Part shown: positions 19,164 through 34,825 of the stretch, in pieces | Position numbering within the stretch: the stretch's first letter is position 1 | How the letters are laid out: every line of letters begins with the position of its first letter | DNA from: Candidatus Bathyarchaeota archaeon | GTDB taxonomy: Archaea > Thermoproteota > Bathyarchaeia > TCS64 | Assembly: GCA_043826455.1 (NCBI GenBank) | Contig: JBDRQD010000076.1 | Location: 1 to 38,612 of the forward strand | Length of the DNA: 38,612 nt | Direction of reading: 5' to 3' | Position numbers and translations under genes: made by a program | The notes under the pieces: generated by a model | The model's database searches: none | What the model was told of the DNA's origin: nothing | Seen by the model: the letters and a program-made list of their open reading frames with translations, nothing else

Positions 19164-20180
19164 CTACACCCATTTTATGTATCCGCTGGGGGAGCCCGCT
19201 CCCCCAACAACAACCTGGTTAGAGGGGTTTTTGCCCCTCACCTCTTCCAATACGCCTCGGAACTCCACGCGGTCCCCCGCCTCAAAGACGCCACCGTAGA
19301 GCCCCTCGTAGCTGACAAGCCTGGTAACCTCGGCGCTGACACCTTCAAGCTCCGCGTCTCTTACGGCGTAAACAGCTGGCAGGTAGATGGACTCGCCATC
19401 ATCAACCACTGTCGCTGTGCCCCGGACCTCCCCCCGTCTGCGGTATGTGTTATCGCCGTAGCTCTCGGTGATCTCCTTGTCCGTTCTGGTGGGGTGGATG
19501 GAGAAGTAGGTGCTCTCATAGTACCCGTAGTTCCACCTGGTTTTAGCCACCCGCCGCAGCTCATCCACCGTCAGAGGGAACTTGCTAGCCCTCTCCCGAC
19601 ACCAGGCGTCCACCTCCTCTGGGGAAGGGGGCTGGATGCGGTCCCCCTCCTCCCTGAGCCTGGCCATGGCGTCCCTCAGCCTCTCTGAGGGCTTCCTGCC
19701 GTACACCGTCAGGTCTATGTCCGAGAAGTCGGGGTTGTGGATTCCCGTGAGCAGTGAGCCCGTCACGCCCAGCTCCTTGACCCCCGCCTCACCTGTCAGC
19801 AGGTCAGCTAGACCCAGAAGCCTCTCCTCTAATGGGTCCCGGGCTCCCCTGGACCTGATCTCCCTCAGCCCCCTCTGGGCCCAGAAGTACTTCTTGACGC
19901 TTGCCCTGGGGACCCAGGAGACGGTGAAGCCCCGGACCGGGCAATCGATCAGATACTGGGGAAGGTTGCGCCTCAGGTACTCGTAGGTGTTCTCCACCTG
20001 AGCCACGTGATAGAAGGGCAGAGCCCGGGAGTACCGAGTCGTCCCGCGGCCCCACTTACCCACGGGGGCCGTGACGTACTTCAGGTACGCCGTGTACCCG
20101 TCCGGCGGGTGCAGGTACCCAACAACGCAGAAGAGGTACCCCTCCGCGGTCTCCACGAAGTCCCTGTCCTTAGGCTTCAA
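19164..20180 (-). CDS. Archaeal predicted nucleotidyltransferase (Pol-beta superfamily, COG1665-like), paralog 1
   Basis: GVTGSLLTG...SDIDLTVYG nucleotidyltransferase motif, N-terminal DFVET..G..F.V.GY.HP...AYLKY, and C-terminal OB-like GDRVEFRGVLEEV. Begins 4 nt after the rimK-like stop. Confidence 0.8.
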   Translation of the reverse strand: MKPKDRDFVETAEGYLFCVVGYLHPPDGYTAYLKYVTAPVGKWGRGTTRYSRALPFYHVAQVENTYEYLRRNLPQYLIDCPVRGFTVSWVPRASVKKYFWAQRGLREIRSRGARDPLEERLLGLADLLTGEAGVKELGVTGSLLTGIHNPDFSDIDLTVYGRKPSERLRDAMARLREEGDRIQPPSPEEVDAWCRERASKFPLTVDELRRVAKTRWNYGYYESTYFSIHPTRTDKEITESYGDNTYRRRGEVRGTATVVDDGESIYLPAVYAVRDAELEGVSAEVTRLVSYEGLYGGVFEAGDRVEFRGVLEEVRGKNPSNQVVVGGAGSPSGYIKWV

Positions 20181-20184
20181 AGGC

Positions 20185-21063
20185 TCACCGGCTCAGCAAT
20201 GATAGGACGTGGCTGACAACGGCCTCAGTGATGTCCACGTCGGTCACTGTCTGGAGGCCCTCCCAGCCCGGGGTGCTGTTAAGCTCAACCACGTAGGCCT
20301 CCCCCGTCTCCGAGACTATGACGTCCACGCCCGTGTACTCCAGGTTTAGGGCCTCCGCCGCCCTGAGGCTCATCTCCGTCACCTCGGCGTCAGGCTTGTA
20401 GGGCTTGGCCTTGCCTCCGCCGGATATGTTGGTCTTCCAGCCCTGGGCCACGCGGCGCATGGAGGCCGTCACCTGTCCTCCTATGACGAAGACTCTGAGG
20501 TCCTCCCCGGGGTGATGTATGAACTTCTGGAGGTAGTAGACGCTCTTGGTCATCTCCAGGGCCCTGAGGACCCTGTGGGCCACATCGGGGTCGGAGACCC
20601 TGGTTATCCCCATTCCCAGACTGCCGAAGAGGGGCTTCACCACCACGTCTCCCCCCAGCTCCTGAAATCCCTTCATGGCCTCTGTGAAGCTCTCGGTGAC
20701 GATGGTCCTGGGTGTCCTGATGCCTGCGTCCTCCAGCAGCGCCGATGTGTAGTACTTGTCCACGGTCCTCTCGATGCTCAGGGCCGGGTTCACCACCAGC
20801 ACTCCCATGTCCTCCAGCCTGTGGAGGGCGTCCATCCTGTAGAAGACCTGCTCCGCTGAGCCGCCAGGGACGCGTCGGACGATTACGGCGTCATAGTCGT
20901 CCACCCCGTAGCCCTTCACCGAGAGCCGGGGCACGCCGCCTATCTCTGACCTGAACCTGGTGACGGGGAGGAGGTAGGCCTCGGCTCCCCTCCTCCTGAG
21001 CTCCTTGAGGAGCCCCCGTATGTGCCACTCGTCCGCGTCTGAACCGATTACTCCTACCTTCAA
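20185..21063 (-). CDS. mptN: RimK-family ATP-grasp alpha-L-glutamate ligase (MptN/Orf5-like; methanopterin or methanofuran glutamylation)
   Basis: GGSAEQVFYRMDALHRL, DKY, VVKPLFGSLGMGI, DLRVFVIG, WKTNISGG and ELNSTPGW, directly downstream of fwdC. The substrate is inferred from context only. Confidence 0.8.
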   Translation of the reverse strand: MKVGVIGSDADEWHIRGLLKELRRRGAEAYLLPVTRFRSEIGGVPRLSVKGYGVDDYDAVIVRRVPGGSAEQVFYRMDALHRLEDMGVLVVNPALSIERTVDKYYTSALLEDAGIRTPRTIVTESFTEAMKGFQELGGDVVVKPLFGSLGMGITRVSDPDVAHRVLRALEMTKSVYYLQKFIHHPGEDLRVFVIGGQVTASMRRVAQGWKTNISGGGKAKPYKPDAEVTEMSLRAAEALNLEYTGVDVIVSETGEAYVVELNSTPGWEGLQTVTDVDITEAVVSHVLSLLSR

Positions 21064-26234: not shown

Positions 26235-27182
26235 CTACTTCATGGACTGCCTGATTATCTCGTCGTTGACCTCGCCGTAGGTGAAGGTGGCGCCGGTCCT
26301 AGAGGATGTGAGGCTGATGGCCGCGGGGGCGAACAGGGCCGGGTCGATCCTGGTGAAGTCAAAGTCCACGGCCTTGTATATCTCGTAGCTGGTCTTACCG
26401 TAGTCCTTGCAGTTGGTGGATGGGGCCTTCTCGGCTATCTTCTTCAACGCGTCCTCCGCCTCGTCCACCACGTAGCTGGTGACCCCGCCGTAGGTCAAGG
26501 CGTCCTCGGCCCTGCCCATGGCCTTCCCGGGGTCCCGGTGGACCGGCATGATAGGGGCAATTCCCGCCCCATACAGCACCTTCTTAGGGTCCAGGCCCAG
26601 TATGTCGAGCCTGAAGAGACCCGTCTCCACGATCCTCCCCGATATCTGGACCATGCCAGCCACGGACCTGGTGGAAGTCAGCACCATGTACACGTTCTCG
26701 GGCTTCACGCCGCACCTCTCAGCGATGTAGTAGGCGGCCGCGTCCGGCGGCTTCTCCTCGGTCTCCAGCAGGATGACGGCTACATCCGCCTCATCCTTGT
26801 ACTCTATCTTCTGGAACACCTCCTTGGGCTTGAGGGAGAGAGCCCTGGCCGGCCCGGAGCTGTCGGCGCTGTAGCCCTCCGGCTTTATCTTCCAGCCCGC
26901 GAGCTGGGCCCCGAACAGTGCTATGGCGGGGTGGTCGGTTGACACCACCACGGCGGGCAGCTTCACTCCTCCATAGTCGGCGTACTGGAGCTGAGCCGTC
27001 CCCGCTCCCCCCATGGCTATGCGGGTAACCATCAGCCCCGCCTCGTAGCCTCCGTGGGCCTCCAGCCCCGTGTCGATGACCTTTGCTCCCGAGGGCAGCT
27101 TCTCCACGCCAACCCTGTAATAGTCCTTTCTTCGGATCAGCTCCTCCGCGAGCACCTGAGCAAGCTTGTTTACGCTCACCAC
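26235..27182 (-). CDS. mch: Methenyltetrahydromethanopterin cyclohydrolase
   Basis: SVNKLA, QLAGW, SGPARAL, QISGRIVE and FTRIDPALFAPA. Confidence 0.96.
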   Translation of the reverse strand: MVSVNKLAQVLAEELIRRKDYYRVGVEKLPSGAKVIDTGLEAHGGYEAGLMVTRIAMGGAGTAQLQYADYGGVKLPAVVVSTDHPAIALFGAQLAGWKIKPEGYSADSSGPARALSLKPKEVFQKIEYKDEADVAVILLETEEKPPDAAAYYIAERCGVKPENVYMVLTSTRSVAGMVQISGRIVETGLFRLDILGLDPKKVLYGAGIAPIMPVHRDPGKAMGRAEDALTYGGVTSYVVDEAEDALKKIAEKAPSTNCKDYGKTSYEIYKAVDFDFTRIDPALFAPAAISLTSSRTGATFTYGEVNDEIIRQSMK

Positions 27183-27314: not shown

Positions 27315-27617
27315 CTACACGGACTTCCTGTCCATGTAGTCCACCACCAGACCCTCCTTGGTCAGCTCAAATATGACGCCGTCCTTCCCCTGCCTCCTCT
27401 CCACGCAGAACCCGTACTCCAGGAGCCTCACGTGCCAGTCCAGGGACTTGACATCCAGCCCGGTGGCCGATGAGAGGGCCTCCAAGGTCCTGTGCCCCTC
27501 CTTCATGGCTCTAAGGATGTCTCTCCTCACAGGACTGTTGATTGCTCGTAGGTACCTGCGGTGCCTCTCCTTGGTGTCCTCCATGGAGTCGGACACGGTC
27601 TTGCTCTTGTCAGACAA
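27315..27617 (-). CDS. ArsR-like winged helix-turn-helix protein
   Basis: LRAINSPVRRDILRAM...LSSATGL....LDWHVRLLE.G.....FELTKEG pattern. Confidence 0.75.
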   Translation of the reverse strand: MSDKSKTVSDSMEDTKERHRRYLRAINSPVRRDILRAMKEGHRTLEALSSATGLDVKSLDWHVRLLEYGFCVERRQGKDGVIFELTKEGLVVDYMDRKSV

Positions 27618-27677: not shown

Positions 27678-28187
27678 CTACTCGGGGAGGGCGATGAACC
27701 TCTTGACCCTCATCTGCTTCAAGGGGTCCGAGATCTGCTCCCTCTGGGGGTGCTCAGTGTCCAGGATGAGCACAGTGTCGAAGCCCTCCTTCTCGCCGGC
27801 GACGGCTATGAACTGGCCTCCCACCAGCTTCTTGCTTGAGGCCACGGCGGCCACCTCCATGGCGGCCTTCACACCGGACCCGAACATCATGAGGGTCTCC
27901 CTCATGGCCCTGTCGTCCTGGATTGGGAGACTGGCCTTCTCCACCGGCACCACGTTCAGCTTCTTCATGTCCTTCTTGGTGTCATCGTCGTAGGTGAACT
28001 CGGTGACGCTGACCACCTGGACCTGCTTACCGAGGACCTCCGCCAGCTTCAGGGCGGCCTTCCCCTTGTGGCTGGCTATCACCACCTTTGACGCCCCCTC
28101 GGGAGAGGTGTGCTTCTTCACGGCTTCGAAGACCACGCCGGTCTTCGTCTTCTTGTTCACGTACAGGATGCTGCTATCTGCGTCCAA
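27678..28187 (-). CDS. Pyruvate-kinase C-terminal (alpha/beta)-like domain protein, COG1751-like
   Basis: KVVIASHKGKAALKLAE, ETLMMFGSGVKAAMEVAAVA and IAVAG...GFDTVLIL resemble archaeal PK_C-like proteins. Confidence 0.65.
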   Translation of the reverse strand: MDADSSILYVNKKTKTGVVFEAVKKHTSPEGASKVVIASHKGKAALKLAEVLGKQVQVVSVTEFTYDDDTKKDMKKLNVVPVEKASLPIQDDRAMRETLMMFGSGVKAAMEVAAVASSKKLVGGQFIAVAGEKEGFDTVLILDTEHPQREQISDPLKQMRVKRFIALPE

Positions 28188-28325: not shown

Positions 28326-28766
28326 GTGGTTGAGTTGAGCGTCCAACTGAGCTCCGAGTTCTGCGGCCTCCCCTGCAGGGTCCTCATGAACAAGACTCCT
28401 CCTATTGCCAGGGCAGAGGATCATCTCGTGGAGGTGACCAGCAGGCTACTGGGGGTGAACTTCAAGGCCGTGATCGTGTACGAGGACGACGAACCCGTCG
28501 GCCTCATAACCCTCAAGGATATAATGAAATGGCTGCTGGTGGCCGAGGACAAGAGCAAGCTAGTCATGGGGGACCTAGTGTCCGTCCCGTTGATCACCGT
28601 GGGCGTGGACACCACCCTTGAGGACGCCGTGAGCGTCATGAGGAAGTACCACATCAACTACCTGGGAGTACACGAGGACAAAGCCATCAGAGGCCTCGTC
28701 ACCGAGCAGGGCATCAAGGAGTTCTGCGAGCTGTACCCCCACTACCTCAGGCGCTACGCCATGTAG
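28326..28766 (+). CDS. Stand-alone CBS-domain pair protein
   Basis: PVGLITLKDI, PLITV..DTTLEDAVSVMRKYHINYL.V and GLVTEQ. The start may be TTG 28335 after AGGTGG. Confidence 0.85.
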   Translation: MVELSVQLSSEFCGLPCRVLMNKTPPIARAEDHLVEVTSRLLGVNFKAVIVYEDDEPVGLITLKDIMKWLLVAEDKSKLVMGDLVSVPLITVGVDTTLEDAVSVMRKYHINYLGVHEDKAIRGLVTEQGIKEFCELYPHYLRRYAM

Positions 28767-29714
28767 TCATGGCCGCCACCCGGTGAGAAGGAGTACGAAC
28801 AGGGATGCAGCCGTCAGGTCAGCCGTTGTACCCGGGTTCAGCGCGCCATTCGTCCTCTGTAGTTCCTCGTCCAGTTCAATGAGCATGCATCTGCCACGGT
28901 CCGACGCCGCGCCCCCGGCGTCAAGGATGCTCTGAGCCCTCTCACTTACAGTCCTCGCAGCTTCTGGGCCCCTCTTCCGCTGGATCAGGGAGTCGGGGTG
29001 CTCCGAGAGTAGGCAGAGGAACGTGTTTACCACAGAGTCGTTGACGCTTACCCCCCTAGACAGATGCTCCGCGAGGTGCCCATACCCCTCTGAGACCACT
29101 ATGTTGAACCCTGTGACCCACTCGCTGCATATGGAGTCTCGCCCAGAGCAGGTCTCGAAGATGTCATGCGGCGTGATGCCATGCTTCAAGATGTAGTCCA
29201 GTGACACTGGGTCTGTGACGTCCAGCTCATCCACGTCGCCCAGGTTCTCCCTCGACATGGCCATACCAATGGCCTTGTAGATGTCCACGGCGTCCTGTGG
29301 AGCCGCAGCCCCAATGATCTCCCTTATGGAGGCTCTGAGCTTAAAGGGTTCAACCACGCCACCCTCAGCTACGGCCCCCGCGGCGGCAGCTATGGGTGAG
29401 AACAGGAGGATCACACCAAGGTGGACGTTGCCGCCCCTCTGCCACGCCAGCATCTCCTCGACGGCGCCGAGGATCGACCCACCCATGCCCAGGCCGCCCC
29501 AGTCTCCTCCCCCAGCCTTGATCAAACTGCTCCGGCCAGCCAGATCCCTCATCCAGGGCATCATGGAGACGCTGGCCGCCAGAAAATGCTCGTAGCTGGT
29601 GCCCGGAAAGTCCCTTAGGCGGTGGACGTTTCCCGGTTTGGGGTACGCCGAGACCTCTAGGAGGGCCGCGAGGGACGCGCACCGCCCCACCAAGTCACCC
29701 ACTCCGCCTTCCAT
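28767..29714 (-). CDS. citG: CitG-family triphosphoribosyl transferase (Orf7-like)
   Basis: LLEVSAYPKPGNVHR, NVHLGVILL, PDSLIQRKRG and NPGTTADLTAA. ATG 29714 follows GGAGG (ORF track 29729). Confidence 0.9.
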   Translation of the reverse strand: MEGGVGDLVGRCASLAALLEVSAYPKPGNVHRLRDFPGTSYEHFLAASVSMMPWMRDLAGRSSLIKAGGGDWGGLGMGGSILGAVEEMLAWQRGGNVHLGVILLFSPIAAAAGAVAEGGVVEPFKLRASIREIIGAAAPQDAVDIYKAIGMAMSRENLGDVDELDVTDPVSLDYILKHGITPHDIFETCSGRDSICSEWVTGFNIVVSEGYGHLAEHLSRGVSVNDSVVNTFLCLLSEHPDSLIQRKRGPEAARTVSERAQSILDAGGAASDRGRCMLIELDEELQRTNGALNPGTTADLTAASLFVLLLTGWRP

Positions 29715-29741
29715 GTGTGTCCCCTCCATAAATCGTTGCTC

Positions 29742-29753
29742 ACTTTATAAAGT
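29742..29753. promoter_or_regulatory. Palindromic, potentially bidirectional TATA box
   Basis: ACTTTATAAAGT is a perfect palindrome centred almost exactly between the divergent starts at 29714 and 29779. Confidence 0.6.
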
Positions 29754-29778
29754 TCCACCGGGCCAAGATAATACTTGC

Positions 29779-30780
29779 ATGGACCGTCTCTCAGGCTTCA
29801 CCGAGGGGGACTACCTCAGGACCGTCGAGGGCCTGTTCTTCGCCGTGAAGGGCGGCGTTCACCCAGACAACATGGTGATAGCATACCTCCGCTACATCCC
29901 TGACCCCCGGGGGGGAAGGTCTAAGGGAGGAGTCCACTATCGTAGGGTGAGCGACATAGGCGAAACCACGAGGTACCTGGAGGAGCACTACCCCATGTAC
30001 CTCAACCACATTAGGAGGCTCAACATGACCCTGCAATCTGTCCCTGTTCACCGCGTAGCCGGCGTGTACAAGCCCAGGGAGAGACTAGGAGAGATTCTTG
30101 AAAACCCGGCCACGCTCCTTGAGAAGATTTTAGTCCGGTTCGCGGAGGCTATCGCCGACGAGAGCCGCGTCCCCTTAAGCGGCTTCGGCGTATCCGGCTC
30201 GCTTCTTATAGGGCTGGACATTGAGGGCTCCGACGTTGATCTGAACGTCTACGGGCTTGATGAGGGGCGGAAAGTCTACGAGGCCCTAAAGAAGCTGAGA
30301 AGAACCGGGGGATGGGTGTCGCCCTACGACGACGAGACCGTGAAAAATGTGCTATTCTCTCGGTGGGGCGACCTGGGGCGCCTCAAGGAGCTGGCTGAGG
30401 TGGAGAAGCGGAAGGTCCTACACGGCAGGGTCATGGGCACGGACTACTTCGTGAGGCTTCTGCGAGACGAGGAAAGCTATCTTTCTAAGCCGATGGACGT
30501 CGTGACACTCAAAGCCAGGGTCGCGGACTCGTCTGGGTCCATTTATACGCCGTGCACATACAGAGTCGATGAAGTGGAAACGCTGTCTGATCCCATCCAG
30601 GGGGAAATCACTGAGCTCGTGAGCTACCGGGGCAAGTTCACGGAGCAGGCCGAGGCCGGGGACTGGGTCAGGGTGAGGGGCACCCTCGAGGAGGTCCAGG
30701 GTCCAGATGGTGCCCATTTCAGGGTCATCCTTGGGGGAGAGGGAGACTACCTGCTGCCCCTGTTTTTGGATAATTTTTAG
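29779..30780 (+). CDS. Archaeal predicted nucleotidyltransferase (Pol-beta superfamily, COG1665-like), paralog 2
   Basis: GVSGSLLIG...SDVDLNVYG motif, colinear with paralog 1 along its length. The real start is ATG 29779, since the ORF-track extension to 29599 overlaps citG. Confidence 0.8.
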   Translation: MDRLSGFTEGDYLRTVEGLFFAVKGGVHPDNMVIAYLRYIPDPRGGRSKGGVHYRRVSDIGETTRYLEEHYPMYLNHIRRLNMTLQSVPVHRVAGVYKPRERLGEILENPATLLEKILVRFAEAIADESRVPLSGFGVSGSLLIGLDIEGSDVDLNVYGLDEGRKVYEALKKLRRTGGWVSPYDDETVKNVLFSRWGDLGRLKELAEVEKRKVLHGRVMGTDYFVRLLRDEESYLSKPMDVVTLKARVADSSGSIYTPCTYRVDEVETLSDPIQGEITELVSYRGKFTEQAEAGDWVRVRGTLEEVQGPDGAHFRVILGGEGDYLLPLFLDNF

Positions 30781-30846
30781 TAAACCGTCGACGACTCTAT
30801 AGGGAACTGCCTGTTGGTATTTATAAAAGAAGCAGAGCTGCTGAGC

Positions 30847-31461
30847 ATGCTGCACAAGTCGGGCTTCACAAGGGACGGAATAGTCGAAGTCATACTGGTT
30901 ACCAGGGGCGCTGATGGCTCAGTGAACGCCGCCGCCATGGGGGTGAAACTAACAGGAGACCTGCTTGAGATCAGGCCATATAAGACCAGTGAGACCTATA
31001 GGAACCTCAAATATGGCGGAGAGGCGGTGATAAACGTCACCCACGATCCGTACCTGTTTTTGGCGACGGCATTCAAGGACGAGGTCCCTGGACAGCCTCA
31101 GATGTGCGCTGACATGAGTCTCCAGGAGGCAGACTCGTGCATCTACGTGGAGGTCCAGGGCGAAGCCGGCTACTCAGACGCCCAGGCGTCGTTCAAGACT
31201 AAGCCCATCAAAACGGTGATAAAAAGGGAGCACCCCATCGTCTTTAGTAGGGGAAGAGCCGAGGCAATAGAGGCAGTGATCCACGCGACCAGAGTGAAGG
31301 TGTTCCAACTGCAGGGCAGGACAGGCGAGGTGCAGGCGCTGACCAGAAAGATAGCTGAGTGCGCGGAGACCGTGGGGCGGGTGTCGCCAGAGAACTCGCC
31401 CGAAAGCCGCGTCATAAACGAGCTAAGACAGATGATGAAGAACTGGGGGGTACCACTGTAG
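30847..31461 (+). CDS. DUF447-family protein (flavin-binding split-barrel-like), methanopterin biosynthesis-associated
   Basis: EVILVT...NAAAMGV, S.TYRNL, NVTHDP.LF and RGRAEAIEAVIHATR. ATG 30847 follows TTTATAAAA (30820-30828). Confidence 0.8.
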   Translation: MLHKSGFTRDGIVEVILVTRGADGSVNAAAMGVKLTGDLLEIRPYKTSETYRNLKYGGEAVINVTHDPYLFLATAFKDEVPGQPQMCADMSLQEADSCIYVEVQGEAGYSDAQASFKTKPIKTVIKREHPIVFSRGRAEAIEAVIHATRVKVFQLQGRTGEVQALTRKIAECAETVGRVSPENSPESRVINELRQMMKNWGVPL

Positions 31462-32411
31462 AGATCAGTTTAACCACGCCTTCAAGGCTTCAGTTCGGCA
31501 TAGTCGACATGCGGGGAGACCTGGGCAGGATCCACGGCAGCGTCGGCGTAGCCATCCAGCGTCCACGGCTCACCGTCAAGGCCGTTGAGAGCAGCGAGAC
31601 CCGGATCATTGGTGCGCGCTCCAGCAGGGCCAGCGACATCTTGAGCACCCTGATGAGAGACCACGGCATAACATCGGGTGTCCAGGTTGAGATACTGGAG
31701 GACATCCCGGAGCACACAGGCTTCGGCTCAGGGACGCAGCTAACCATAGCCCTGGGGACCATTTTATCCAAGATGTTCGACCTGGGGCTGACACCTCAAA
31801 GCATCGCGGAACGGATGGGCCGGAGCAGAGTATCCGGCATAGGCGCATACGCGTTCCTCGGCGGCGGCTTCATAGTGGACGGGGGCCACGCCTTGGAGAG
31901 GCGGGACTCCGTGCCGCCCCTCATATTCAGGCGAGACGTTCCCGAGGATTGGGTATTCGTGGTGGGCGTCCCCCGCATAAACCGGGGCGTCAGCGGTGAC
32001 AACGAGAAAGACGCCTTCAGGAGGCTGGGGCCTCCGCCTGCCCAGACAGTCGCAGAGGTGTCAAGGATAGTTCTGATCCAGTTGATCCCCTCCATCATCG
32101 AGGGGGACATCGAGAGGTTCGGTGACGCCATGACCAAGCTGGACTCCATGTTCGGCGACTACTGGCTGAAAGTCCAGGGAGGAAGGTACAGCCACCCCAG
32201 GATCGAGGAAGGCGTAAACTATCTGCTTGAGAACGGGGCCGTGGGGGCCGGCCAGAGCTCCTGGGGGCCGGCCTTCTACGGCCTAGTGGACGGGGAGGCT
32301 CAGGCCGATCAACTTGCCCGGAGCCTGTCCCGCTTCCTGAACACGGTGGGCGAGGGTCTGGCGTTCACCACCAAGGCTGACAACTTGGGCGCCCAAGTGA
32401 GTGTGAAATAG
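31458..32411 (+). CDS. mptG: Beta-ribofuranosylaminobenzene 5'-phosphate synthase (GHMP fold); start codon uncertain
   Basis: TPSRLQFG..D..G..GR..GSVG, IPEHTGFGSGTQL, RVSGIG..AF.GGGFIVDGG and GQSSWGP. The homologous region begins near 31458, but the only canonical start is GTG 31359. Confidence 0.9.
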   Translation, partial: VEISLTTPSRLQFGIVDMRGDLGRIHGSVGVAIQRPRLTVKAVESSETRIIGARSSRASDILSTLMRDHGITSGVQVEILEDIPEHTGFGSGTQLTIALGTILSKMFDLGLTPQSIAERMGRSRVSGIGAYAFLGGGFIVDGGHALERRDSVPPLIFRRDVPEDWVFVVGVPRINRGVSGDNEKDAFRRLGPPPAQTVAEVSRIVLIQLIPSIIEGDIERFGDAMTKLDSMFGDYWLKVQGGRYSHPRIEEGVNYLLENGAVGAGQSSWGPAFYGLVDGEAQADQLARSLSRFLNTVGEGLAFTTKADNLGAQVSVK

Positions 32412-32423
32412 GCGGGGCCTAGG

Positions 32424-33989
32424 ATGAGGGTTCTAGTCTTAACGGGGAAGCTCGCCGAGGAGGCCGTCAGGCGCACGGTCAAGGGATTGAGCGACGTGGA
32501 CGTGTTAGCTCTACCCGTGTCCGTCGCATCCTTCCTCACGCCCAGGTACGTGGCTGACGTTCTCGGCAAGATGAGCCTGGACCGCTACGGCATGATTCTC
32601 ACCCCTGGGACCGTCAGCGGCGACGTGTCCTGCGTGGAGGAGGCGACGGGCGTCCCAACATTCAAAGGGCCCGTCCACTTCGTTGACCTGCCCACGGTCC
32701 TGTCCTCAGACATCCAGTTATCGAAGACCGTTCCGGCCTCAGACTTCATCAGGGACCTGGCTGAGCAGAGAGCATCCGAGGAGATAGAGGCGGCTGAGCG
32801 TGACTGGGCTGACATCCTGAAGCTCAGAGGCGGGATCACTCTGGGTGAGGGCGCAAGGCGTCTACCTGTGAGCGACGGGCTCCCTATGAGGGTTATAGCG
32901 GAGGTGGTCAACGCCCCCACCCTCACACTCACGCAGATCGTGGACAGAGCCAAGTACTACCAGTCCCAGGGCGCCCAAGTAATCGATATAGGGATGCTGG
33001 CAGGCAACCCGAGGCCCGAGACCTTGGCACCCATCATCGACGCACTCAGAGACGCCGTGGACCTGCCCCTCAGCGTAGACACCCTGGACCCCTCAGAGAT
33101 CAGGGCAGCCGTTGACGCAGGCATCGACATGATACTCAGCGTCGACGCAGGCAACCTGGACGCGGCGGCGCCCCACATCGGCGACCAGGCTGTAGTCGTC
33201 CTCCCCACAGACATGAGCAGAGGCCACCTGCCCAGGACAGCCAGGAAGAGGGTTCACGCTCTAGCCCAGAACATTGAGAGAGCCAGGGAGCTGGGCCTCA
33301 ACAAGGTCGTCGGCGACCTGGTGGTGGAACCCCTCCTGAGGCCGGGGCTCCTCACGGCGCTGGAGAGCTACCGGCTCTTCAAGGATAACCACCCAGAGGT
33401 GCCGCTACTCTTCGGCATAGGCAACGCCACGGAGCTCATAGACGCGGACTCCACAGGGGTGAACGCGGCCCTGACGGCTTTGGCCCGCGAGGCTGGGGCC
33501 TGTATGCTCCACGTGCCGGAGTATAGCGTCAAGGCCAGGGGCAGCGTGGCTGAGGTGGTTCGTGCCTCCCGGATGATGTACGTGGCGGAGAGGAGGGGGT
33601 CTGTGCCCAAGGACCTGGGCCTCGACCTGCTGGTGCTGAAGGAGAAGCGTTGGAAGGAGGAGGCCTACGATTCGAGCCTTGAGTCGTCGGCGGAGGTGGT
33701 CCTGGGCTCAGAGATTGACGAGTATAAGCCTGACGAGGCGGGGTGGTTCAAGGTGCAGGTGGACCGGGGCGCCGGCAAGATCGTTGCTCTCCACTATCCC
33801 CCGGGGAGAGAAGAGCCGGCTACCATAGTCAAGGGGGGCGACGCCCGGGAGGTATACCAGACCATCATCAGGCTAGGCCTCGTCACCAGGCTGGACCACG
33901 TGGCGTACCTGGGTAAGGAGCTGACGAAAGCTTCCATCGCCCTCAGGCTGGGGCGATCATACCAGCAGGACGAGGACCTCTTCGACTAA
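32424..33989 (+). CDS. Dihydropteroate synthase-related protein (Orf20/MJ0107-like) with N- and C-terminal extra domains
   Basis: VLTGKLAE, LPVSVAS, VIAEVVNAP, GAQVIDIG, PLSVDTL, GIGNATELIDADSTGVNA, and C-terminal LDHVAYLGKEL.KA.IAL.LGRSYQQD. Confidence 0.88.
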   Translation: MRVLVLTGKLAEEAVRRTVKGLSDVDVLALPVSVASFLTPRYVADVLGKMSLDRYGMILTPGTVSGDVSCVEEATGVPTFKGPVHFVDLPTVLSSDIQLSKTVPASDFIRDLAEQRASEEIEAAERDWADILKLRGGITLGEGARRLPVSDGLPMRVIAEVVNAPTLTLTQIVDRAKYYQSQGAQVIDIGMLAGNPRPETLAPIIDALRDAVDLPLSVDTLDPSEIRAAVDAGIDMILSVDAGNLDAAAPHIGDQAVVVLPTDMSRGHLPRTARKRVHALAQNIERARELGLNKVVGDLVVEPLLRPGLLTALESYRLFKDNHPEVPLLFGIGNATELIDADSTGVNAALTALAREAGACMLHVPEYSVKARGSVAEVVRASRMMYVAERRGSVPKDLGLDLLVLKEKRWKEEAYDSSLESSAEVVLGSEIDEYKPDEAGWFKVQVDRGAGKIVALHYPPGREEPATIVKGGDAREVYQTIIRLGLVTRLDHVAYLGKELTKASIALRLGRSYQQDEDLFD

Positions 33990-34825
33990 CCGCTGAACCG
34001 GACCACCGTTATGGGGTGGTGCCTCACGGACTCCAGCATCTCCCATGTTACCCCCGTTAAGGACGTCTCCATCTCCCTGGACATGCTCCACACGGTCCTG
34101 CCGGCTCCTCGGCCACACAGCCTGTGGTGGAGTCTGGCCAGCCAGAGAGCCCTGTCGGGGTTCACACTGCTCCCGGACGCGGCTAGGGGCGTCTGCCGCG
34201 CCTGCAGCCTCAATACCTTCCCGATGATGAAAACCAGGAAGCCTCCGAGGTGCACGAGACCGGGGAACTCCACTCTCCTGGGGGCGATGTGGAGGTTCCT
34301 CCAGGAGTAGGTGGTGTCGCCGTCAACGATCATGACGGTGACCCGTTTACCTGTGCGCTCGCGGACTGCTTCCTGGATTTTAGACGCGACCTTAGTGGCG
34401 TCTCTCAGCGGTAAGCTGACGTATGAGTACGGGAGGTTGCTCGCGTCGATTCCCCCCTCGCTGTAGTGGCGCATGGACTGGGGGAGGCCGACAGTTCTTA
34501 GGGCCACCTGCTTGTGGGCGGCGCCCTCCTCCGCGGGGTAGTTCCTCAGGTTGACGATGGTCTGCTCCTTTAGCCCAGTGATAGTGCCGAGGGGGCCGCC
34601 CCACACTCGCCTAGTCCAGGGGCCTGCTAGGAGCCTGGCGACGTACCCCGGCTTCACCGCGGCCTCGTCAACCAAAAAGCCTGAGGCTGTGGATAGCGCC
34701 TTCTCGCTGACGATGATGATGTCTTCGTCCTCGACTAGTCCTCGGACCTTTTCAATGATCTCTGATGTGTAGTCTGTTCCCGGTCTCCAGTAGTGGGTCC
34801 TGATGCTGACGGCCTTGACCTTCAT
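33986..34825 (-). CDS. CofE-like (F420-0:gamma-glutamyl ligase family) protein
   Basis: YWRPG, IIVSEKALSTASG, EGGIDASNLP, VMIVDGD and PITVVR. The substrate is unknown. Confidence 0.75.
   Translation of the reverse strand: MKVKAVSIRTHYWRPGTDYTSEIIEKVRGLVEDEDIIIVSEKALSTASGFLVDEAAVKPGYVARLLAGPWTRRVWGGPLGTITGLKEQTIVNLRNYPAEEGAAHKQVALRTVGLPQSMRHYSEGGIDASNLPYSYVSLPLRDATKVASKIQEAVRERTGKRVTVMIVDGDTTYSWRNLHIAPRRVEFPGLVHLGGFLVFIIGKVLRLQARQTPLAASGSSVNPDRALWLARLHHRLCGRGAGRTVWSMSREMETSLTGVTWEMLESVRHHPITVVRFSG

Follow-up and report, generated by a model that had tools for sequence, protein, structure and literature searches.

In a 38,612-nucleotide stretch of DNA from Candidatus Bathyarchaeota archaeon (assembly GCA_043826455.1, contig JBDRQD010000076.1; hereafter the window), two divergently oriented genes, one encoding a CitG-like protein (28767-29729, minus strand) and the other a three-domain nucleotidyltransferase that we call NT1 (29779-30780, plus strand), appear to act together in the metabolism of the side chain of a methanopterin-type cofactor, an assignment to which we give a probability of roughly 80%. 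Methanopterin is the carrier of one-carbon (C1) units in methanogenesis, anaerobic methane oxidation, the archaeal Wood-Ljungdahl pathway, and bacterial formaldehyde oxidation, and it contains an alpha-ribosyl linkage and a phosphodiester. The identities of the genes, the fold and catalytic motif of NT1, the gene order, the co-occurrence across genomes, the fusion of NT1 to hydroxymethyldihydropterin pyrophosphokinase (HPPK), and the failure to find the canonical partners of CitG were all computed directly. The specific chemistry that we propose, in which the CitG-like protein would act first and NT1 second on substrates and through reactions that we infer, has in our judgment an even chance of being correct, and that the cap added in this organism is hydroxyglutarate is a guess.

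The first-pass annotation of this DNA, made from the sequence alone, had described a CitG homolog and a nucleotidyltransferase with a GS..SDxD motif lying head-to-head upstream of DUF447-mptG-DHPS-like genes (DHPS, dihydropteroate synthase), and the profile matches, the motif, and the coordinates agree with that description. NT1 is the first gene of an operon NT1-DUF447-mptG-DHPS-like: the second gene encodes a DUF447 protein (30814-31461, plus strand; PF04289, E value of 1.6e-21) and is followed by an open reading frame (ORF) of the beta-ribofuranosylaminobenzene 5'-phosphate (beta-RFAP) synthase family (MptG; 31359-32411, plus strand; TIGR00144, 190.1 bits, the cut-off being 113.5) and by a gene for a DHPS-like protein (32424-33989, plus strand; TIGR00284, 384.1 bits against a cut-off of 256.65). 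The MptG ORF reached 224.9 bits with NF040726, which is under the cut-off of 328; the family match begins near 31470, and the profile search of the genome places the gene at 31470-32402.

This arrangement is widely kept. A pattern-based scan limited to a single genome for each species yielded 79 loci, of which 47 were of the Bathyarchaeia type and 32 were bacterial, from metagenome-assembled genomes (MAGs) of Chloroflexota and Acidobacteriota. Among the Bathyarchaeia-type loci, a divergent CitG gene lies directly upstream of NT1 in 35 of the 36 with room upstream, and, of the 38 with room downstream, 35 have DUF447 as the next gene after NT1 and 36 have mptG within 1.5 kb of it; since this order is retained in 35/36 and 35/38 loci, the CitG|NT1-DUF447 arrangement is not due to chance. 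At least one gene of the tetrahydromethanopterin (H4MPT) pathway was found in the flanks of 26 of the 32 bacterial loci, the usual orders being fwdDBA-ftr-fwdC-mch-RimK-(CitG)-NT1-NT2 or NT1...DHPS-like-NT2-DUF447-mptG, where NT2 is a paralog of NT1 that is treated below. CitG lay within 10 kb of NT1 in 8 of the 32, and it was present in all five of the bacterial NT1 genomes that were searched whole. In the archaeal family f29, a distant NT homolog (E values of 1e-19 to 1e-29) is situated directly upstream of CitG in five of five complete genomes. The distance between CitG and an NT gene was at most 300 bases in at least 21 of 82 genomes and at most 3 kb in at least 29, counts that are lower bounds, being taken from the 150 of 314 NT matches that were listed.

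A further tie is to pterins: one 505-residue representative protein of the family (P0157) consists of an HPPK domain (PF01288, E value of 3e-40, residues 8 to 134) fused to an NT1 domain (residues 169 to 493). Among the 32 bacterial loci, 13 contain ORFs with an HPPK domain, which directly adjoin NT1 in four loci (L049, L054, L057, and L071); both the fusion and the adjacency connect NT1 with the synthesis of pterin cofactors. The four adjoining ORFs, from Chloroflexota, are each about 500 amino acids long.

Phyletic distribution supports the same assignment. Five queries were run on one evenly drawn sample of 251 Thermoproteota genomes (thresholds included E ≤ 1e-10 for the NT superfamily and E ≤ 1e-20 for the mptG family), and the counts are given without a significance test, since related genomes are not independent. 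Matches were obtained in 120 genomes for the NT superfamily, 116 for CitG, 88 for the mptG family, 62 for mch, and 63 for the DHPS-like protein. NT and CitG were found together in 111 genomes, NT only in 9, CitG only in 5, and neither in 126; when NT was compared with the presence of mptG or mch, the corresponding numbers were 114 with both, 6 with NT only, 9 with a marker only, and 122 with neither. In seven large families, NT, CitG, mptG, and mch are all missing from every sampled genome (f14, 0/34; f18, 0/17; f20, 0/22; f23, 0/19; also f25, f31, and f34). The expectation that the NT family would co-occur with the citG-like gene and with mptG or mch was thus borne out in Thermoproteota, and the link between NT and CitG is repeated in bacteria: in 201 genomes of an Anaerolineae-type class (that of the genome with locus L075; completeness was not stated), there were 13 matches for NT, 12 for CitG, and 12 for the mptG family, with NT and CitG together in 11 genomes, NT only in 2, CitG only in 1, and neither in 187. 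Four complete bacterial genomes, each a single large contig (G310, G352, G392, and G426), carry a high-scoring mptG-family gene (E values of 1e-76 to 1e-80) with no match for CitG or NT; members of the beta-RFAP synthase family may serve another purpose there. Two interrupted frames were also seen, one DHPS-like with 6 stop codons (G133:C195:2954-4507) and one of mch with 4 (G029:C4:2340-3273); both are possible pseudogenes or assembly errors.

The sequence of the CitG-like protein identifies it as a true homolog of the CitG family that belongs to a divergent archaeal subfamily. It has 320 amino acids, residues 16 to 312 of which match PF01874 with an E value of 8.4e-67 over positions 2 to 283 of the 284 in the profile, and hhalign aligned a profile of 29 orthologs to Escherichia coli CitG over 253 columns with a probability of 98% (E value of 2.3e-13). 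The motifs EVS..PKPGNV.R, GGN.NLG, PD[ST]LI.RK, and LNPGTTADL are conserved among the 29 orthologs and shared with E. coli CitG. All four NCBIfam equivalog cut-offs for CitG/MdcB are missed (58.6, 51.3, 51.1, and 26.3 bits against 280, 282, 272, and 477), the alignments covering roughly the C-terminal third of the protein. The annotated start may not be the true one, which could lie at the second methionine (29712-29714).

The canonical partners of CitG were looked for in the window and beyond it. As the first-pass annotation had stated, none of the 35 window ORFs scanned against Pfam and NCBIfam is a citrate lyase, malonate decarboxylase, or acyl carrier protein (ACP) gene. The search of the whole genome (2.95 Mb, 97.7% complete, and 7.2% contaminated) was likewise negative: CitX (PF03802), MdcG (PF10620), ACP (PF06857), and CitF (PF04223) gave no match; E. 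coli served as positive control and was matched for CitX, ACP, and CitF, and the negative for MdcG is weaker because no control match above the cut-off was available for PF10620. Of 14 named control genomes, CitG matched those of E. coli, Methanocaldococcus jannaschii, Methanosarcina acetivorans, Sulfolobus acidocaldarius, and Haloferax volcanii, and the mptG family matched only the four archaea of this list, in none of which was CitX, ACP, or CitF matched.

NT1 bears the motif GVSGSLLIGLDIEGSDVDLNVYG (G-S ... SDxD, that is, GVSGS...SDVDL), and, of 179 sequences of the superfamily, nearly all conform to the pattern G[ST]GS-x9-SD[ILV]D, a few departing from it by a single residue (e.g., GVVGS, GIIGS, GVAGS, SDHD, and SDYD). 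An AlphaFold model built from a 25-row alignment (predicted local distance difference test [pLDDT] score of 89.4, predicted template modeling score of 0.85) has three domains. Residues 1 to 105 form a small N-terminal beta-barrel with helices, residues 108 to 229 form a Pol-beta nucleotidyltransferase core (VIA Z scores of 7.3 to 7.7 to Pol X, Trf4, TdT, TUT7, and MEAT1), and residues 235 to 333 form a C-terminal OB fold (VIA Z scores of 7.5 to 8.6 to domains of SSB, MCM, and RPA). By its motif, which fits the superfamily pattern hG[GS]-x(9-13)-Dh[DE]h, and by the palm-like core of this model, NT1 belongs to the DNA polymerase beta-like nucleotidyltransferase superfamily. Foldseek assigned the OB region a probability of 0.99 to 1.0 to SSB chains, yet with E values above 1e-3, so that the match concerns the fold only and implies no ligand; over the whole of NT1 it returned no match in the PDB at E ≤ 1e-3, the rows obtained being OB folds only. 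The N-terminal domain folded alone (pLDDT of 91) gave weak matches to small barrels (Sm, KOW, and SH3-like; best Z score of 5.0) and no clear solved relative in the structure search, which does not establish a new fold. A search of NT1 against PDB sequences found nothing (best E value of 0.66). A structure prediction for a complex of the CitG-like protein and NT1 (29-row alignments each) gave no answer (score of 0.00, controls not run) and bears neither way.

No Pfam or NCBIfam family matched NT1 above threshold, and 96 relatives gave generic nucleotidyltransferase families only: PF01909 matched 81 of the 96, as well as NT2, with NT1 itself remaining below threshold (E value of 0.11), and the MTPAP-like palm family matched 10 of the 96 weakly. 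In a representative library, the family comprises 907 clusters (50% identity) at E ≤ 1e-3 and 541 at E ≤ 1e-10, and the source names for it are just "predicted nucleotidyltransferase" or "hypothetical protein". Organism names accompany nine of the 120 NT matches listed, eight of the Bathyarchaeota type and one a MAG labeled Thermofilum; the best matches in the protein atlas carry Bathyarchaeota- or Thermoproteota-type labels only, which says nothing about absence from methanogens. A longer ORF (29599-30780), starting at a GTG inside CitG, was rejected, as it would overlap CitG by 131 bases with an extension found in no homolog. Each of 24 aligned homologs starts no more than a few residues away from the position of the ATG at 29779, which fixes the gene at 29779-30780 on the plus strand and the protein at 333 amino acids.

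In the scheme that we favor, the CitG-like protein would consume ATP, release adenine, and attach a 5-triphosphoribosyl group in alpha linkage to the aminophenyl-ribitol of the pterin conjugate, at the terminal hydroxyl; because the CitG-like protein keeps the motifs of its family, the economical assumption is that it transfers a triphosphoribosyl group from ATP. The product would be a formal analog of a nucleoside triphosphate (NTP) and could serve as the donor for NT1, at which the hydroxyl of a cap would attack the alpha-phosphate, so that pyrophosphate (PPi) would leave and a phosphodiester would form; the cap would be 2-hydroxyglutarate in classical methanopterin. The scheme would thus yield both the alpha-ribosyl linkage and the phosphodiester of methanopterin. 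NT2 (19164-20180, minus strand), an old paralog with 34% identity to NT1 (E value of 6e-31) that matches PF01909 with an E value of 5.3e-7, may either pair with NT1 or add a second or different cap, and it probably acts along with the CitG-like protein and NT1 as a late side-chain enzyme.

A version of this tail scheme had been put forward in the first-pass annotation and is supported in part: the gene pair, the failure to find the canonical partners, and the co-occurrence in the sampled genomes speak for it, and the two paralogs are not explained by a scheme with one nucleotidyltransferase. Several findings, taken up here and in the next paragraphs together with the alternatives on which they bear, weigh against our assignment or against parts of it. 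NT1 gave no match to the CitX or MdcG families of Pfam even at E ≤ 10, and neither did any of its 96 relatives; hhalign gave its profile a probability of 0.39% (E value of 0.15) against E. coli CitX; the PF10620 search for MdcG remained silent on the genome although both NT1 and NT2 are present in it; and, when the NT1 model was compared with solved structures by VIA, that of CitX (7dcm) did not figure in the 50 highest-ranking ones. Since no relation in sequence is detectable, "CitX/MdcG-like" can denote an analogy of the proposed chemistry and not common ancestry.

The OB fold of NT1 is a second such finding, as OB folds most often bind nucleic acids. NT1 and NT2 might accordingly be RNA-directed nucleotidyltransferases that tail tRNAs or small RNAs, their linkage to cofactor genes being incidental; the combination of a Pol-beta core with an OB fold, the structural neighbors (terminal uridylyltransferases [TUTases], Trf4, and SSB-like domains), and the weak matches of 10 of the 96 relatives to the MTPAP-like palm family would all suit this. 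A role in RNA tailing nevertheless seems to us extremely improbable, since the NT family tracks the presence of mptG or mch (114 genomes with both against 6 with NT only), is missing from all sampled genomes of the seven large families that lack these markers, and occupies the operon position, and has the fusion to HPPK, described above.

The donor of the ribosyl group is also in question. In cell-extract work by R. H. White, phosphoribosyl pyrophosphate (PRPP), not ATP, was reportedly drawn as the ribosyl donor. The same cofactor could then be made by other chemistry, in which a ribosyl-5-phosphate derived from PRPP would be installed by another enzyme, the NT proteins would activate the intermediate or the cap by nucleotidylation (e.g., adenylylation) at a phosphate or hydroxyl, much as CofC and CofD do in F420 synthesis, and the CitG-like protein would have some other acceptor. 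Consistent with this are the reported PRPP dependence in White's extracts, the resemblance of the NT core to NTP-using enzymes (Pol X, TUTases, and Trf4; Z scores of 7.3 to 7.7) and not to CitX, the presence of at least two NT paralogs, which suits a scheme of activation followed by transfer, the CofE-like gene within the cluster, and the PfkB-type and Kdo/RIO-type kinase-like genes that adjoin NT genes in some lineages. Such chemistry is the alternative to be taken most seriously, but we consider it unlikely: the tightest partner of NT1, by co-occurrence and adjacency, is CitG (the two concur in 111 genomes and are discordant in 14), the copy beside CitG is of the NT1 type in 19 of 19 loci, and the alpha-ribose of methanopterin suits inversion from beta-configured ATP, that is, CitG chemistry.

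Paralogy itself also counts against a simple scheme, in that two old NT orthogroups with one to six copies per genome are more than a one-enzyme scheme explains. The window's genome has two copies, NT1 and NT2, and the sampled Thermoproteota genomes have between one and six. In a tree of 68 sequences, all 29 sequences labeled NT2, and none labeled NT1, fell in one clade (support of 0.984), the rest being of the NT1 type, and archaea and bacteria are present on both sides. In the fetched loci the two types mostly adjoin one another, and the nucleotidyltransferase closest to CitG is of the NT1 type in all 19 loci with CitG. In the window, NT2 adjoins a gene for a RimK-type ATP-grasp ligase (20185-21063, minus strand; PF08443, E value of 7.3e-30) and lies upstream of fwdC-ftr-fwdABD-mch; the order NT2-RimK-FwdC recurs in related loci with a long enough flank (e.g., L006, L007, L014, and L028). 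Elsewhere other genes accompany the NT genes. In the flanks of the NT2-NT1 pair of loci L085, L086, and L087 (families f22, f37, and f27) are a PmbA/TldD gene and a gene for a 519- to 557-residue protein with a Kdo/RIO/APH-type kinase-like domain, which in L087 has a weak Pol-beta-like N terminus as well; a gene encoding a winged helix and a PfkB-family kinase stands between the S-component-like gene (see below) and NT1 in L097 (genome G150); and an aldo/keto reductase gene precedes NT1-CitG in L084, L101, and L102, from three genomes of genus g43.

A further difficulty is that the trio of NT, CitG, and mptG occurs in lineages that lack mch, namely f15 (9 of 10 genomes mch negative) and f22, f27, and f29 (all genomes), from which it follows that the cap need not be 2-hydroxyglutarate. 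The genome of H. volcanii has matches for CitG, the mptG family, and mch; according to the passages of one paper that deal with these organisms (PMC8305020), haloarchaea use tetrahydrofolate, and the Haloferax mptG-like gene was judged not to be isofunctional. One could also imagine that the product of the CitG-like protein is a prosthetic group that the NT protein puts on a serine of a protein, either an enzyme of the C1 pathway or another carrier. Attachment to a protein is said to be the sole proven role of CitG-type enzymes, and the N-terminal barrel and the OB domain are parts of the NT1 model to which a protein might bind. We regard a protein target as very unlikely, however, given that the genome search brought up no ACP-type carrier, that NT1 is fused to HPPK, an enzyme of small-molecule pterins, and that the module is present in f22, f27, and f29, which share mptG and lack mch.

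Finally, mptG is missing from 29 Thermoproteota genomes in which both NT and CitG were found, so that the presence of the module does not depend strictly on de novo synthesis. The DHPS-like gene is also missing from 24 of these 29, and 23 of the 24 carry mch; among all mch-positive genomes, 35 of 62 have no mptG-family match. Of 18 CitG/NT regions, each taken from one of these 23 genomes, 10 have a membrane protein gene resembling the S component of an energy-coupling factor (ECF) transporter beside CitG, mostly standing between CitG and NT1 (L082, L091 to L097, L099, and L103; the calls were made by PF07155 or PF12822, or by phmmer to such a gene, one of them weakly with an E value of 1.6e-4). 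No S-component-like gene separates CitG from NT1 in the mptG-positive loci, and none was found in the window's genome with the single query used. The module thus persists, together with a transporter-like gene, in genomes without mptG and DHPS-like genes; the pattern suggests late-step enzymes that follow the mptG and DHPS-like reactions and are able to serve salvage of an imported precursor, and the genomes with mch, CitG, and NT that have neither mptG nor DHPS-like gene may be auxotrophs for a methanopterin precursor.

It is conceivable on these grounds that the pair is mainly devoted to salvage or repair, re-tailing imported or damaged methanopterin fragments, and that other enzymes build the tail de novo. 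The 23 genomes with NT, CitG, and mch but no mptG or DHPS-like gene, and the S-component-like genes beside CitG, point this way; NT1, however, heads the de novo operon in the window, as it does in 35 of 38 related loci, and we consider a predominantly salvaging role improbable, more so than the PRPP-based chemistry, all the more as one set of late enzymes can serve salvage and de novo synthesis alike. A wider form of the scheme with the CitG-like protein and NT1 can be proposed tentatively, with odds that we place clearly below even: NT1 and NT2 would be "cap transferases" with the triphosphoribosyl pterin conjugate made by CitG as their NTP-like donor, different paralogs of which attach different caps and so generate the known and unknown diversity of methanopterin-type side chains across archaea and some bacteria, and the variant consisting of CitG, S component, NT1, and NT2 would re-tail an imported, tail-less pterin core in core auxotrophs, namely the many Bathyarchaeia and relatives without mptG and DHPS-like genes.

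The surroundings of the pair fit a C1 setting. By Pfam and NCBIfam matches of the 35 ORFs, the window is one large H4MPT Wood-Ljungdahl (C1) island of a Bathyarchaeia genome, in which MetF/MetV-like genes are followed by the carbon monoxide dehydrogenase/acetyl-coenzyme A (CoA) synthase genes cdhABCDE, NT2, the RimK-type ATP-grasp gene, fwdC, ftr, fwdA, fwdB, fwdD, mch (26235-27182, minus strand), genes for an ArsR-type helix-turn-helix regulator (27315-27617, minus strand), a PK_C-like protein of 169 amino acids (27678-28187, minus strand; weak Pfam match, E value of 0.0037), and a CBS-pair protein (28326-28766, plus strand), and then the CitG-like gene on the minus strand, NT1 on the plus strand, DUF447, the mptG-family gene, the DHPS-like gene, a CofE-like gene, two genes for CooC-type ATPases, and RACo. 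The ArsR-PK_C-CBS block between mch and CitG is kept in many Bathyarchaeia loci (e.g., L005 to L008, L014, L028, and L036). CitG and NT1 are separated by a divergent spacer of 49 bp (29730-29778) containing the palindrome TTTATAAA at 29744-29751, about 28 bases 5' of the NT1 ATG, which is a possible archaeal TATA box shared by the two genes. The CofE-like gene (F420_ligase family; 33986-34825, minus strand; PF01996, E value of 2.4e-19) converges on the DHPS-like gene, a position kept in many related loci, and scores far under the equivalog cut-off for CofE. It is possibly a member of the same cofactor cluster and may add residues to a methanopterin-type tail rather than to F420.

According to Kaster et al. 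2011 (PMC3087415), the non-pterin part of methanopterin takes at least nine steps, and an "estimated 7 unknown proteins" are listed for methanopterin; our literature search brought up no paper in which the ribosyl-phosphate or hydroxyglutarate steps are assigned or in which the NT family is tied to methanopterin. If our reading is correct, two gaps among the enzymes of the methanopterin side chain would be filled, a family that is still uncurated, with some 900 sequence clusters, would receive a function, and CitG chemistry would serve not only for the prosthetic groups of proteins but also for a free cofactor; genomes without mptG and DHPS-like genes that have the module and a transporter-like gene would moreover indicate cross-feeding of the cofactor in sediments. 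Genetics, and not only in vitro work, may be feasible, because f29, a family that resembles cultured thermoacidophiles, has the adjacent pair in complete genomes.

Three known systems offer parallels. In F420 synthesis, CofC and CofD use a nucleotidyltransferase-type activation toward the phosphodiester of a cofactor side chain, as proposed here, and the cluster described here also has a CofE-like gene; no CofC or CofD family of Pfam or NCBIfam matched NT1 or NT2, and in the scheme that we favor the activated donor would come from CitG chemistry and not from GTP. A second parallel is Orf7 of the clusters for dephospho-H4MPT (dH4MPT) in methylotrophs, a CitG-family gene near mch and an ATP-grasp ligase gene, as in the window. 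The dephospho-H4MPT of methylotrophs is without the phosphate-hydroxyglutarate end. Mutants in several genes of the orf7 cluster reportedly had no dH4MPT in the work of Chistoserdova, Rasche and Lidstrom (2005), in which the CitG part of the present idea may already be proposed. The descriptions of these clusters give the order mch-orf5-orf7 (PMC3615186) and the order mch, alpha-L-glutamate ligase, triphosphoribosyl-dephospho-CoA synthase (PMC11533326); unlike the locus described here, the clusters as presented in those passages name no nucleotidyltransferase.

The nearest precedent for the chemistry is provided by the pairs CitG with CitX and MdcB with MdcG, which make the prosthetic groups of citrate lyase and malonate decarboxylase, respectively, and in which, as here, a CitG-family protein is accompanied by the gene of a transferase. 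The partner in our case differs from CitX and MdcG in being a 333-residue protein of barrel, Pol-beta, and OB domains, and the presumed acceptor is an intermediate of a pterin cofactor instead of dephospho-CoA or a protein. The logic that we propose would nevertheless be that of CitG and CitX: an alpha-linked 5-triphosphoribosyl group would be taken from ATP, and a hydroxyl would then displace PPi to form the phosphodiester.

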